DNA of 64,000 nucleotides from Candidatus Poribacteria bacterium (GTDB taxonomy: Bacteria; Poribacteria; WGA-4E; PCPOR2b), in contig OZ242326.1 in assembly GCA_965208325.1 (NCBI GenBank), positions 1,600,001-1,664,000 of the forward strand, written 5' to 3'. Of this stretch, positions 23,007-37,900 are shown one piece after another (within the stretch, counting starts at the first letter, position 1; the number at the start of each line of letters is the position of its first letter). A model generated the notes under the pieces. It had not been told where the DNA came from, ran no database searches, and saw only the letters and a program-made list of their open reading frames with translations. The position numbers and the translations under genes were made by a program.

Positions 23007-24056
23007 ATGAAACAGTTGTTGAAGGTTACTTTTTTTGCGGCAATCGTCTGCTTGTCGATTCCAGCGTCCAGTCTTGCACAGACGGTCGTGTCGTTCAATC
23101 CCCCTGTAATGGAATCACCTGACGCCGCACAGCAATTCACTATTGATGTTCAAATCTCAAATGCAACCGATGTCTTCGGATATCAAATCGCGCTTACCTT
23201 TGACTCTACCGCACTCGCATACGTCAGCGTCCAAAATGGAGACTTCTTAGCGGGATCTATCGGTCCGCCAACACTCCCCCCAATCGTCGCTGACGGTGAA
23301 ATCAAGTTCGGCGCAACCCTATTAGGTGCAGTGCCCGGTGTCAATGGAGACGGAACACTCGCAACCGTTACATTTGAGGTCGTTGCTGTGAAAGCATCGA
23401 CTCTCGGACTTGATGTTAAGGTTATTGATTCAAACGACCAGCAGTTGGAATTGACAACTGAATCAGGTACGATTACCGGCGCACCGCTCGAACCTGTGAG
23501 AACTGAACCGGAAGGCGATGTGTTATCGTTTGAAGCGTCGATTTCGAGTGCAAACACACCAGCCAAAGGCTTTATCGCTGTATGGGAAGGGGTAATGGAG
23601 ATACAGGCGGGTACGTTCATTGAATATCAGGTGATGTTCTCAGGGATTAGCGTCCACACACAAGGCGGTGTCTACGCTCACACTGCCGACGGTAGAATCG
23701 TTGGTCTCGTTGATGATGCTGCTGGGTCGGATTGGCAGCACCGCAAGGTCTCACTCGACGATATTGTCGGCAGTGAAATTGTTGCGATTACAGTTGGCAC
23801 GGATAACGGAGGCAATCCGGATAATCCAGCGGGGTTATTTGGAATGGTGATTGACAACGTGCAGATAACCAGCGATGCGGGTGTTTTGACGAAGGTATGG
23901 GTTGACGAAAGTACGATTGGCGGTGCGCAGGAGGCGGCTGCAGCGTATGGAGATTCTACAGGTGTTGAGGGCATGCGGGCATTCATCTCTGCCGTTTCTG
24001 TTGAACCCCAATCAAAGATGTTGACAAGTTGGGGTCATCTTAAAGCAGCGCGTTGA
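23007..24056 (+). CDS. Secreted protein with cohesin-like domain and conserved C-terminal tail
   Basis: Signal peptide; GYQIALTFD..L.YVS..NGDFL...G.GTLATVTF cohesin pattern; ends SVEPQSKMLTSWGHLKAAR. Confidence 0.8.
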   Translation: MKQLLKVTFFAAIVCLSIPASSLAQTVVSFNPPVMESPDAAQQFTIDVQISNATDVFGYQIALTFDSTALAYVSVQNGDFLAGSIGPPTLPPIVADGEIKFGATLLGAVPGVNGDGTLATVTFEVVAVKASTLGLDVKVIDSNDQQLELTTESGTITGAPLEPVRTEPEGDVLSFEASISSANTPAKGFIAVWEGVMEIQAGTFIEYQVMFSGISVHTQGGVYAHTADGRIVGLVDDAAGSDWQHRKVSLDDIVGSEIVAITVGTDNGGNPDNPAGLFGMVIDNVQITSDAGVLTKVWVDESTIGGAQEAAAAYGDSTGVEGMRAFISAVSVEPQSKMLTSWGHLKAAR

Positions 24057-29921: not shown

Positions 29922-31142
29922 TCATCGGTTGTAGAGATATTTGGGGGAGGTGTATTGCGGATGCGGGGGATCTTTACGCGACTGGATCGATTTTTGCCCA
30001 AATGCCGTTCTGATACAGATTGCAATGCCGATGACGCTGGCAATAATGAAGGTAAAATGCTTGATTGGAGGAATCCAAGTTGCCATCCAATAAATAACAT
30101 ATCCGGTTGTTACGGCAACAATTTTGGATCGCTTTGGAAAGATGGTTTTGCCAATGGAAAGAAAAATTGCGGTTTTGCCATAAATTGCCATCGGGAATAA
30201 AACAGACAAAGACAGCAGCACCAGTGGGATGCCGATAATCGAAAGTATTAACATCATACCGAGATAGGGAACAACGATTAACAAGATTAACGCAAGTAAC
30301 GTGCTTCCGATTGGGTGGTGGGAAATCGCGCGTGCCATGTTGTCCATTTGCCGCGGGAAGGTGGTAACGATTAGTACGTGAACGAGCGTAAGGGTCAGAA
30401 ACGTAAGCGCGCTCCAAAACCGCTTTTGTGTCGGCGTTCCCCACCATATTTCCTGTGGGTGCATCATTAATTCGATTGCAAGCAGCACATCTCTCCAGCT
30501 ATTTATTTCTTGATAGGCCTCCGCTGTCCAATCATTGTCCATCTTTCCAAGGATATTCCCCAAAACTACCGTTACCCTTCCCGGAATCTGCGCATGATCG
30601 TAGATTTCAAGCCTATCCGCTGCTTTTCTTATGATATACGTCTTCCTATTGTCTTCATCATTTATCATCCATTTGCTGCGTTTATTTGCGACCGACACGG
30701 TGACACTTTCAGAAAGTGAAAAACCGTTTTTCTTAAACGCTTGCCGAAAGTCCGCAAGGATGAGCCCATTTTCTAAATTCTTTCTTAACTGAGAATCCAC
30801 GCTGAACAGTAACGCACGATCTTGGAATTCGACATCTCCACTCAAGACGAATATGTTACCGTTCACCCGTCCCCGAATCTTTGCCGTACCTCCGATTAAA
30901 ACAATGCTATCCACAGTTTCTGTTGTACCGAGATCAAAATCTCCGAACCGCACAACCCGATTCCGATTAACGGTTTTAACGTTGGGTTCTAACGGCCTTG
31001 ATAGCGTTGCTCGTGCTAAAGTGTCATCCTTTGGCGAAGAGTCCGTCGAAGCAGAAGGATTGGTTTGGCTGGGGCTTACTTGAGGATTGAGGATTTGAAA
31101 GCACAACCACAAGGTTACGACTAAAAATTTAGTTTTCCTCAT
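29922..31142 (-). CDS. Membrane protein with beta-helix (polymer-forming cytoskeletal-like) repeats, an inserted 71-aa module and a multi-TM C-terminus
   Basis: Signal peptide; VVRFGDF...IVLIGG..KIRGRVNGNIFVLSGDV repeats; LSIIGIPL TM motif. Confidence 0.75.
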   Translation of the reverse strand: MRKTKFLVVTLWLCFQILNPQVSPSQTNPSASTDSSPKDDTLARATLSRPLEPNVKTVNRNRVVRFGDFDLGTTETVDSIVLIGGTAKIRGRVNGNIFVLSGDVEFQDRALLFSVDSQLRKNLENGLILADFRQAFKKNGFSLSESVTVSVANKRSKWMINDEDNRKTYIIRKAADRLEIYDHAQIPGRVTVVLGNILGKMDNDWTAEAYQEINSWRDVLLAIELMMHPQEIWWGTPTQKRFWSALTFLTLTLVHVLIVTTFPRQMDNMARAISHHPIGSTLLALILLIVVPYLGMMLILSIIGIPLVLLSLSVLFPMAIYGKTAIFLSIGKTIFPKRSKIVAVTTGYVIYWMATWIPPIKHFTFIIASVIGIAICIRTAFGQKSIQSRKDPPHPQYTSPKYLYNR

Positions 31143-34745: not shown

Positions 34746-36143
34746 TCATGCCGTATGCTTATTCTTAAAATCCTGGCTATTTAATCCATAGTTCTGCATA
34801 CGGTTTTGCAGTTGGCGCCGGGAGATTCCCAAGAGTTCAGCAGCTTTAGTCTGGTTGCCGCGGCTTTGCCTCAAGGCTGTACGGATGTATTCCATCACAA
34901 TTTCTTCCAGTGAAACGCCTTCCTCTTGAATTTCAACGAGAACGTTTGACGGCGGCAAGGAACTATCCGAAATTTCGAGCGGCAAATCTTCGATATCGAT
35001 TACATCCCCTTCTCGAAGCACGAATGTTCTTAACAAGCAATTTTCCAATTGCCGCACATTACCCGGCCATTCGTATCGGCGAAGCGCTGACATCGATCTT
35101 GGCGTCATACGCTTCGGCATTGCATCCGGATATTCTTCGCTGAATTTTTGGAGGAAGAAATCAACTAAAATTTGAATGTCGCTTTTCCTTTCACGGAGCG
35201 GGGGCATCTGAAGTTGAATGACATTTAAGCGAAAATAGAGATCTTCACGGAACGCACCTGCTTCGACCGCCGCTTGCAAATCTTGATTTGTCGCGGCAAT
35301 GACACACACATCAACTTTAATGGGTTCGATTCCCCCCACTCTCATAATCTCCCGGTCCTGCAGAACGCGCAGAAACTTGCTCTGTGCAGACATGGAGATG
35401 TCCCCTATTTCATCGAGGAAAATTACCCCGCCGCTTGCGACCTCGAACAGCCCTTTCTTCTGGCGGTCCGCTCCCGTAAAGGAGCCCTTTTCATGCCCGA
35501 ACAGCTCGCTTTCAATCAACTCGTGGGGCACAGAACTACAGTTGACCGCGACGAATGGCTGATCTTTCCGCTTCCCTTTTTCATGGATGGCTCTTGCAAC
35601 CAAATCCTTTCCAGTGCCGGTCTCTCCTGTGATTAAAACTTGATTGACGCCTCGATGAATAATGCGGGACATGGTTTTAAACAACTGATTCATTCGTTCG
35701 CTCTGACCGATAATCCGCTCGAAGTGAACCATTTGTACGGGTTGATTTACTTCCTTGGGTTTACCATCAGTAAGCGCACCCCGCTCTTCTAACGCGCGTT
35801 TAATCTGCGTTTTAAGTTCATCGTTATTGATGGGTTTCTGAAGATAATAGAATGCGCCTTCACGGGCTACCAAATCAACTGCATCCTTTAATTCGGCGAA
35901 AGCTGTCACGATGAGTACGGGCAGGTCTGGATCCGTCTCCTTAATTTCGCGCAGGAGGTCTCGCCCTGTCATCCCGGGCATTCGCATGTCACTGATGACC
36001 AGGTCAAACATCGTGCCTTCAATTTTTTCAAGCGCGTTGAGGCCGTTTTCCGCTAACGTCACCTCGTAACCTTCACGTTCCAATATGCGCTGTAAAACTT
36101 TTCGCTGCCCCGATTCATCCTCAACAACTAAAATTGATGGCAT
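34746..36143 (-). CDS. Sigma-54-dependent response regulator (NtrC family)
   Basis: REC domain (DMRMP), GETGTGK, ELFGHEKGSFTGA, WPGNVRQL, Fis-type HTH. Confidence 0.93.
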   Translation of the reverse strand: MPSILVVEDESGQRKVLQRILEREGYEVTLAENGLNALEKIEGTMFDLVISDMRMPGMTGRDLLREIKETDPDLPVLIVTAFAELKDAVDLVAREGAFYYLQKPINNDELKTQIKRALEERGALTDGKPKEVNQPVQMVHFERIIGQSERMNQLFKTMSRIIHRGVNQVLITGETGTGKDLVARAIHEKGKRKDQPFVAVNCSSVPHELIESELFGHEKGSFTGADRQKKGLFEVASGGVIFLDEIGDISMSAQSKFLRVLQDREIMRVGGIEPIKVDVCVIAATNQDLQAAVEAGAFREDLYFRLNVIQLQMPPLRERKSDIQILVDFFLQKFSEEYPDAMPKRMTPRSMSALRRYEWPGNVRQLENCLLRTFVLREGDVIDIEDLPLEISDSSLPPSNVLVEIQEEGVSLEEIVMEYIRTALRQSRGNQTKAAELLGISRRQLQNRMQNYGLNSQDFKNKHTA

Positions 36144-36166
36144 ATAGAATCCCCCTTTCCGAACCG

Positions 36167-37900
36167 TCAATCACCGATATCGGCCGCGCTCAACGGAAAA
36201 GTAACCATAAACGCAGTTCCCATCCCAACCTGACTCTTGAACTCAACCTCTCCGTGATGCGCCATGATGATTTGATGTGAAATTGCAAGTCCCAGCCCCA
36301 TACCGCCATCTTTCTCTTTCGTTGTGAAATAGGCGTCGAATATGCGTTCTTGAATCTCATTCGGAATGCCGATGCCTGTATCACGAATTTCCAAAGCAAC
36401 CTGTTTCGCGCCGCCGATTGGCATTTCCAGTTCGGTGGTGATGTAAATGCTGCCGCCTTTAGGCATGGCTTGAATACTGTTGCGGATAAAATTAAAAATA
36501 GCTTGCCGAATCAACCCTGCATCAAGGTTTAGGCGGGGAAGATTTTCATATTTTTTGACCACTTGGACGTTGGCATTCTCCATCGTAAGTGTAAATTCCG
36601 CTAGCACCCGATCCAGGAGTTCATTGAGTTTGGTTGGCTCAAGATTAAGTTCCTTGGGGCGGTTCAGTGTCAAGAACTGTTCAGAGATATGCCTCAACTG
36701 TTCAATCTCATAATTGACTATATTCAGAAACTCTCTCGTTTCTTCAATATCTTGCGGTTTTATCTCCTTTTCCGAGAAGAGGTCCTTAAGATGTTGAGCG
36801 GTCATTCCGATAGTATTAAGCGGATTTCGGATTTCGTGGGCAACTCCCGCCGCAAGTTGTCCAAGCGCGGCGATTCGCTTCGACTGAGTCTGTTGTAATT
36901 GCCGCAGCATTCGCACAAGGGTTGCGGTGATGCGGCTAATTTCGCCCGATGAATAGGATTCCGGTACGGATTCCAATTCGCCGGATTCTGCACGTTTTAT
37001 TATCTCCATCATTCGCTCAAGTGGCCGGATGATAAGACGAGTTGTTGTCATGTCAATGATAATCACAAGTAATACACTAACGATAATGACCGATAGGAGG
37101 TGCATCTGACGCGAATTTGTGATTAATCTGGCAATGTCGGGCACCTCAAAAAGGACTTGGATATATCCTTTTATCTTTGGGGAAGTATCTTTATCTATGA
37201 GGAAACTGAGTCGATCTTCATATTTCCATACGACATATCTCTGGTCGTTAACTGTGTCAGTGATTAGCCAGCGTTTGCCCTTCTCCGTACTTGCCACATT
37301 AACATCCTGGGATAGTATAACCTCTTGGCTATCAAGCTCATGCCTAAGCGCCTCTGAAATAGTCTCGTTTTCCAAGTCGCTTTGGTGGTGCAAACCAACG
37401 CTAGCTTCCAGCGACAAATCTGGTTGGATATAAAGTTGCACCTCGTAAGGAATGATTACCGCCGTTGCATATTTGTTGCCGTTAATCGGGGGCGTATCAT
37501 ACACCGTCACACCGTTCAGGTCAATCTCAAGTCGGTCTTGCGCATTCAAGTTAATGCGATCTTCGGCATTGTTGTTTGGAACAAGGCTTGCCTGAATTCG
37601 AGAATCGCCGACTGTGACGTGAATGTCCAATATGTTTTCCATATGCTGAGGATCCAATGCCCGTAATGCGTATTCGATTTCATTCCGCTTAAATTCTTGC
37701 CACCGTTCAATTTCAGCTTCAATGCGAGGTCGTACAGTTTTTTCCGCGATTCCTTTGAAGACCGCCCCTCTTTTTACTCCGCCGTCGTGCAGTATTTTCA
37801 AATCCCTCCGCGCAATGAAATCATCATACCAATAAAAAGACACTAAAATCGCCAAGACAGATAGGTTTACAATTAGCGCATACTTCCATTGCAAACGCAT
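36167..37900 (-). CDS. Membrane sensor histidine kinase
   Basis: Two TM segments, HAMP, AHEIRNPL, DTGIGI, FTTK..GG.GLGL. Confidence 0.93.
   Translation of the reverse strand: MRLQWKYALIVNLSVLAILVSFYWYDDFIARRDLKILHDGGVKRGAVFKGIAEKTVRPRIEAEIERWQEFKRNEIEYALRALDPQHMENILDIHVTVGDSRIQASLVPNNNAEDRINLNAQDRLEIDLNGVTVYDTPPINGNKYATAVIIPYEVQLYIQPDLSLEASVGLHHQSDLENETISEALRHELDSQEVILSQDVNVASTEKGKRWLITDTVNDQRYVVWKYEDRLSFLIDKDTSPKIKGYIQVLFEVPDIARLITNSRQMHLLSVIIVSVLLVIIIDMTTTRLIIRPLERMMEIIKRAESGELESVPESYSSGEISRITATLVRMLRQLQQTQSKRIAALGQLAAGVAHEIRNPLNTIGMTAQHLKDLFSEKEIKPQDIEETREFLNIVNYEIEQLRHISEQFLTLNRPKELNLEPTKLNELLDRVLAEFTLTMENANVQVVKKYENLPRLNLDAGLIRQAIFNFIRNSIQAMPKGGSIYITTELEMPIGGAKQVALEIRDTGIGIPNEIQERIFDAYFTTKEKDGGMGLGLAISHQIIMAHHGEVEFKSQVGMGTAFMVTFPLSAADIGD

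Follow-up and report, generated by a model that had tools for sequence, protein, structure and literature searches.

The 71-residue segment that interrupts a 406-aa gene product in the window (the 64,000-nucleotide stretch of Candidatus Poribacteria contig OZ242326.1 analysed here) is most probably encoded by an IS66-type MITE, tolerated by its host as a folded passenger domain. The element shows the features of a MITE: it is short (214 bp), has no transposase, and exists in many copies with inverted repeats, a target-site duplication and empty sites. Points against this assignment include that no out-of-frame or intergenic copies are found, that the transposase is absent from the window genome (G000) and that the interior of the element is unmatched. 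The description as an in-frame intragenic MITE with a named, testable mobilisation route is well supported. With less assurance, we favour a broader reading, in which the fitness of the MITE depends on the fold of the encoded peptide. The inverted repeats would double as terminal β-strands of a domain that folds on its own and has not been described before; a single base change would have opened the frame, and length plus duplication would make up whole codons. Such an element would be a 'non-splicing intein' that colonises essential proteins phylum-wide, remains mobile in some lineages and has given rise to a family of more than 2,600 clusters at 50% identity. The features in the window are listed below.

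29922..31142, minus strand: host gene, 406 aa, with a repeat-like N-terminal part, a putative β-helix, and a hydrophobic C-terminal part; precomputed Pfam PF26514.
30600..30813, minus strand: 214-bp element, most probably IS66-type MITE-derived; bases 2-214 (30600-30812) encode the 71-aa domain.
30801..30813, minus strand: left terminal inverted repeat GTTACTGTTCAGC; 10/13 to the Poribacteria IS66 repeat; encodes LLFS.
30600..30612, minus strand: right terminal inverted repeat, eroded, 7/13 in the window copy; encodes the final four residues LEIY.
30814..30821, minus strand: upstream 8-bp target-site duplication GATCGTGC.
30592..30599, minus strand: downstream 8-bp target-site duplication GATCATGC, 7/8.
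36167..37900, minus strand: host gene of the second copy, a HAMP/HisKA/HATPase_c histidine kinase of 577 aa.
37199..37412, minus strand: second module copy, older and more eroded, with no remaining duplication; precedes the HAMP domain of the kinase.

Direct re-reading confirms that the 213 bp at 30600-30812 (minus strand) translate into the 71 residues given in the original prediction. The flanking repeats are present as described, with GATCGTGCG at 30813-30821 and GATCATGCG at 30591-30599. The duplication, taken at that time as 9 bp, exists, but 8 bp is the best reading of its length (GATCGTGC / GATCATGC, 7/8); the ninth base, G at 30813, is base 1 of the 214-bp element and lies outside the duplication. 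The claim that removal of the segment restores an empty site is borne out by the G004 orthologue, which reads GDVAIQ-DSAQIMGRVTVVLG, and the ungapped identity of 22/71 to residues encoded at 37199-37411 in the histidine kinase is reproduced.

The two copies in the window belong to a large family. Starting from these two, an HMM search repeated to convergence on 60,259 six-frame ORFs recovers 24 in-frame copies, distributed over 20 ORFs (E ≤ 3e-8); reversed ORFs give no match better than E 0.55. The mean amino-acid identity among the copies of the window genome is 31%. Their hosts are unrelated and include AspRS, RpoN, CtaA/COX15, RseP (these four are among the 20 host proteins of the window genome), M23 peptidase, UPF0182, DUF255, O-antigen ligase, TamB, HEAT, TPR and an ECF sigma fusion, and several host Pfam models are split in two by the insert. 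The scan of the proteome thus gives many additional copies in unrelated proteins, and the idea of a mobile element that inserts in frame and spreads among unrelated genes holds on the strength of these copies, the empty sites and the duplication. The extracytoplasmic location proposed for the copies does not hold, since AspRS, RpoN and the ECF sigma factor fusion carry the module too.

Module alignment A1 matches 41/41 relatives, with 5-41 matches each. The module is found in 145/151 phylum genomes, another class included, and 2,616 representatives at 50% identity match it at E ≤ 0.001. Pfam assignments for 66 of the best 150 representatives add many more host families. Tandem and nested arrays hold up to several copies in one protein; in RpoN of G005 and G009 (L299, L300) a module is nested within a module, which results in 2-3 matches in RpoN. 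One insertion site (L119, L120, L030, L145) is common to the other class (G041, G043) and family f1 (G005, G009), representing either a very old insertion or gene transfer. The shortest frame containing any of 190 module copies is 162 aa, and a search among proteins of 37-142 aa, which is not proof of absence, gave no stand-alone module. A DNA-profile search of G000 gave no intergenic or out-of-frame copy; the module has no match in plasmids, and its exact end pattern has none in viral contigs.

The 190 copies fall into 92 site clusters, and the 69 with a full-length representative were used for analysis of the duplication (23 were left out). A loose junction scan of the 24 own-genome copies had been weak, with only 3/24 reaching 8/9 versus 3.6% by chance; this result is overturned by the exact-register test on the 69 sites. 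In that register, 9-mers give 3.72 matches versus 2.46 by cross-pairing (z 7.7) and 8-mers give 3.49 versus 2.23 (0/20,000 permutations, and still 0/10,000 when the window copy is omitted), with no signal at lengths 3, 6 or 12. The excess of matches lies at positions -9 to -2 and is lacking at -1 (16/69 versus 0.233 expected), where the match rate is lower than at the other wobble positions (54/138, p 0.03). Base -1 is rich in G (29 G, 7 T), unlike the position with which it would pair in a 9-bp duplication (13 G, 21 T; chi-square p 0.0014). Because the excess spares -1 and the base make-up differs, the element appears to be about 214 bp long, to start with G and to add 222 bp. The duplications suggested earlier are therefore general across the 69 sites, but judged from these junctions their length is probably 8 bp rather than 9 bp. 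By genome, the duplication is found in G009 (0/10,000), G000 (p 0.012) and G005 (p 0.043), but the test fails in the small sets of G141 (p 0.11) and G041/G043 (p 0.16). In the other class the signal is weak: its 7 sites give p 0.16, with a left end of 5.7/13.

The original prediction called for conserved DNA ends, and these are found: the module ends match a 13-bp IS66 inverted repeat in register. The end consensus agrees with the repeat GTAACTGTTTAGT at 11/13 and 10/13 positions. The mean over 69 sites is 8.0/13 at both exact ends versus 3.3 ± 0.7 at other offsets, and none of 20,000 shuffled repeats scores 8 at the two ends together. This repeat forms the ends of multi-copy, single-ORF IS66 elements of genus g11, which are 1.5-1.6 kb long (one is 1,561 bp) and carry a 480-aa frame. 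Among nine g11 copies that were read, six have exact 8-bp duplications, one is unresolved and two do not match. In G111, the flanks of two IS66 copies (L238, L248) form no duplication, perhaps owing to recombination between copies. The exact repeat was seen next to transposases in genus g11 only and was not found at L229, L234, L235 and L239. The IS66 transposase family PF03050 matches 8/151 phylum genomes and has no match in G000 (95.6% complete). The co-occurring transposase that was anticipated is thus lacking in the window genome (0 IS66 matches) while present in those 8/151 genomes, and judging from this gene content the module copies in the window genome are probably immobile today. Mobilisation in trans by a partner transposase is what we infer, from the matching ends only; no described mechanism had been known to the original prediction, and IS66-type MITE mobilisation can now be named.

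The left repeat of the module shows one difference of consequence for coding. It has T at position 3, giving TTA (Leu) where the IS66 repeat would give a TAA stop, and this TAA to TTA change opens the reading frame. Position 3 appears to be variable, because the two repeats of ISDge4, an ISBst12-group IS66 element of Deinococcus geothermalis, differ from each other there; in the covered part of its description, this element is shown to transpose, its repeats are GTAACTGCTCAGCA / GTGACTACTCAGCA and its duplication is 8 bp long (PMC12898284). The two inverted repeats of the module encode the first and last strands of the domain, LLFS and LNIY. Synonymous codon usage is in keeping with the IS66 repeat, since the first Leu codon is TTA in 50% of cases versus 13% in the background and Ser4 is AGY in 37/37, although the codon bias persists in the module interior too. 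The interior has no match to two IS66 elements (compared as DNA) or six loci (compared as protein), and its ~190 bp do not match the interiors of present-day IS66 MITEs; the true parent element may lie outside the IS66 elements compared. The domain had also been considered as a relative of the IS66 accessory protein TnpB, which we had presumed it to resemble; this is not supported, as there is no Pfam hit and PF05717 is found in 0/176 phylum genomes.

Repeat GTAACTGTTTAGT also bounds 19 non-coding MITEs of 203-227 bp in 6/176 genomes. The 15 of these 19 that were examined all lie outside long ORFs, 14/15 with duplications of 7-8/8; inside, they show no relation to the module and are rich in stops. 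Five MITEs of frame-keeping length read *LFS...LNSY, and the module reads LLFS...LNIY. The set (L249-L263) is a young non-coding IS66 MITE family of genus g11 genomes G035, G038, G096, G111, G123 and G137. Halves of these MITEs occur in different combinations, and the left end of L256 already carries the GTT variant.

Young copies of the module itself come from a metagenome scan with a pattern built from the module ends, which fixes part of the end match and not the duplication. It gave seven matches (L346-L352), all of them in-frame modules (7/7). The L352 copy is 214 bp long, with a perfect 8-bp duplication, a differing ninth base and both ends at 12/13. L347 has a duplication of 7/8 and the other five young-looking copies 1-6/8, so 2/7 reach at least 7/8. 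Young copies match the IS66 repeat at 10-12/13 at each end, while old copies are eroded. A copy 86% identical to L352 occupies an unrelated host protein, suggesting a fairly recent wave in some lineage. L349 has its insertion site in common with a G000 gene; the other young metagenome copies may be outside Poribacteria.

Most orthologues are empty, so the segment is not carried by all of them. The search for orthologues of the 406-aa host gene covered 37 genomes, of which 30 gave a match; L078, a weak partial match, was left out of the alignment. Among the 30 aligned sequences, 4 are filled, all from genus g1 and from no other genus, and 26 are empty. The net insertion is 74 residues, made up of 71 plus a repeated D-x-A. 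An insertion of 74 residues is also seen in AspRS (31 sequences: 10 filled, 20 empty, 1 uninformative; G141 was left out as its frame does not cover the insertion site) and in CtaA (23 sequences: 14 filled, 9 empty). In RpoN (30 sequences: 17 filled, 13 empty) three extra residues adjoin the module, and the filled sequences form one clade that retains it across families. RpoN of G030 and G027 (L302, L303) has an insert of ~20 residues at the module site, unscored by the HMM and possibly an eroded module remnant. In AspRS and CtaA the occupancy is patchy on FastTree flank trees, some nodes of which are weak, and this pattern makes loss or allele exchange likely at both loci.

The kinase site is filled in 12 of 26 orthologues (one in a broken frame) and empty in 14. 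The broken frame, in the kinase of G009 (L362), is interrupted within the module to give frames of 233 aa and 363 aa and may come from an assembly error. In the kinases of G006 and G005 (L367, L369), the window site is empty and a second-site module lies ~50 residues upstream in the same gene. G002, a relative with ~96% DNA identity, has no kinase copy: an in-frame 80-codon deletion (L355 / window 37179-37438) has removed the flanking residues too. The joint of this deletion is also present in contigs of run X5.

At the protein level the 71 residues are conserved and under purifying selection. One of the six frames of the element is open; across the 69 sites, each of the remaining five is open in 0-4% of cases. 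The repeat itself puts stops into three frames of young copies. The module dN/dS between G000 and G003 is 0.21 (0.18-0.25; 1,494 codons, 19/20 hosts, range 0.05-0.45) compared with 0.16 for the hosts; the ECF sigma fusion was left out because a G003 orthologue with the module is absent. An alignment of 21 copies has no invariant column. Its near-invariant positions (L13, S34, W48, Y59 and L68) are mostly hydrophobic, and W48 is kept in 68/69 sites. The same alignment has no N-terminal Cys/Ser and no C-terminal His-Asn, and there is no Pfam (Hint) match, in agreement with the reported absence of intein termini.

The module is predicted to fold alone as a compact β-α-α-β-β-β-β domain and to leave the host fold intact. 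AlphaFold (AF2) of the module alone gives a pLDDT of 93.7 and a pTM of 0.79, with strands at both termini; of the compact domain with adjacent termini that was expected, the compact domain is thus predicted. For AspRS with the module the pLDDT is 90.7, and the OB fold matches solved AspRS 5gro_A with a target TM of 0.92. No known vertically inherited domain was found to match the module: there is no Pfam or PHROG match, and NCBIfam gives one chance match (E 0.085). Foldseek against PDB and BFVD gives nothing at E ≤ 0.001, which is not proof of a new fold; the best structural scores are a VIA Z of 4.2 and an ESM Atlas score of 0.78. At the RNA level, there is no signal of the anticipated structure. 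None of three copies has a stable fold relative to mononucleotide shuffles (z -1.0, +0.25 and +0.9), and the module has no Rfam match. Contigs of four runs contain no joint skipping the window copy, a comparison of contigs only that does not address rare forms.

These observations are consistent with the following sequence of events. An IS66 transposase acting in trans would have moved the 214-bp element in several waves, each insertion producing an 8-bp duplication. Since 214 + 8 = 222 bp = 74 codons, insertion preserves the host frame, and one orientation and phase in six would give a read-through fusion. Survivors would be insertions that have the open phase and lie in a tolerant loop, the others being purged or decaying. 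The domain would fold aside so that the gene survives, and copies would then be kept folded by selection, with only such copies persisting. The domain would remain in the mature protein, and selection for folding would act mainly so that it does no harm to the host. Occasional copies would disappear through in-frame deletions or through allele exchange.

The strongest rival accepts the same transposon origin and supposes that the domain is kept for a function such as binding, oligomerisation or a solubility/stability tag, that is, full domestication. Purifying selection near the host level is also expected of a useful domain, and the dN/dS of 0.21, the retention of W48 in 68/69 sites, the tandem and nested arrays in which one protein can hold several copies, and the RpoN copy retained across families (17/30, one clade) all agree with it. 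However, the hosts have no common pathway or compartment, none of the columns in the 21 copies is invariant and the near-invariant ones are mostly hydrophobic, the close relative G002 has lost its kinase copy through the 80-codon deletion, and AspRS and CtaA are occupied patchily on the flank trees. A gained function is possible for particular hosts; as a general account we consider it unlikely. It is much less probable that the module moves by another transposase family making 8-9 bp duplications, with only incidental likeness to the IS66 repeat. Such an origin would suit the lack of an IS66 transposase in G000, the interior unrelated to an IS66 element and the window copy ends of only 10/13 and 7/13, but the two module ends fit that repeat in exact register and in the right orientation, with 0/20,000 shuffles equal, young copies reach 10-12/13 at each end, and the duplication length agrees with IS66.

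Removal of the segment after transcription or translation, by an intron-like process or a new type of intein that restores the host protein, would explain how the module can sit in essential, conserved domains. We regard it as very improbable: the module lacks a Cys/Ser start, a His-Asn end and any invariant residue, it has neither a stable RNA fold (z -1.0 to +0.9) nor an Rfam match, the three duplicated codons would stay or require a second step, and the predicted model folds with the insert in place. The least credible alternative is an ordinary promiscuous domain spread by recombination or domain shuffling without a transposase. Tandem arrays within single proteins do suggest local duplication, but against it, the 69 unrelated sites have fixed boundaries, a duplication in one exact register and ends of transposon type. 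A young copy with a perfect duplication, such as L352, would also be unexpected, so this reading is largely refuted.

The IS66-type MITE, taken as a passenger domain, can be compared with several known systems. The conceptual likeness to Rickettsia palindromic elements (RPEs) pointed out previously is real, as in-frame insertion in unrelated genes is shared. In the passages covered, RPEs and the coding palindromes of Wolbachia and Methanocaldococcus jannaschii are, like the module, small in-frame repeats in unrelated genes, housekeeping genes included, that add a conserved peptide (PMC10969869, PMC2229807, PMC3184786, PMC2996958). RPEs are described there as stem-loop palindromes of 105-150 bp, about half of them outside ORFs and located in unstructured segments, and these passages name no transposase (PMC10969869, PMC2229807, PMC3184786, PMC2996958). 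In contrast, the module is 214 bp long, has no hairpin, is found in frame only, and encodes a predicted folded 71-aa domain that is under purifying selection; it spans the phylum, and its ends point to a named IS family. The IS66 ISBst12 group (ISDge4 as partly covered in PMC12898284, and the 1,561-bp g11 element) shares with it a repeat starting GTAACTG and an 8-bp duplication; the module differs in having no transposase, no detectably related interior and T at left-repeat position 3. The bacterial MITEs RUP (IS630-Spn1), Correia/NEMIS, BRE and QMITE1, in the portions of their descriptions covered, are likewise non-autonomous, with inverted repeats and target duplication; their partner transposase too is inferred from matching ends, and some fuse to ORFs. 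They are mainly intergenic, young and conserved as DNA, whereas module copies are 31% identical and persist as a protein domain.

Inteins have an N-terminal Cys/Ser, a C-terminal His-Asn and the Hint fold. Like the module, they are in-frame parasites of conserved proteins whose harm is limited at the protein level; unlike them, the module has no splicing residues, no Hint match and transposon-type ends, and its harm would be limited by folding aside and not by excision.

The literature covered, including parts of PMC3909097 (Poribacteria) and PMC8024623, describes neither this domain nor any IS66 MITE that functions as one. The passages covered call the role of RPE-like in-frame repeats in protein evolution unexplored and state that their mobilisation is without experimental support (PMC10969869, PMC2229807). 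How proteins acquire inserted domains is an open question on which the module bears, as a rare traceable case of a transposon remnant supplying a new protein domain, in dozens of unrelated Poribacteria proteins. Because every step can be traced (partner IS, ends, duplication, empty sites, young and old copies, selection), the proposal can be put to a direct test with a single transposase and a single 214-bp substrate. Poribacteria annotation and phylogenomics are affected, since the insert is present in marker genes such as AspRS. As a natural, widely tolerated loop insert, the domain may also find use in protein engineering.

Two further proteins of the window were noted. A 474-aa response regulator frame at 34746-36170 converges on the kinase gene with a 4 bp overlap and has what we take to be a sigma-54 activator-like motif; RpoN of the window genome also bears the module. 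The protein at 23007-24056 ends in SWGHLKAAR, which presumably resembles a C-terminal motif common in Poribacteria proteins.
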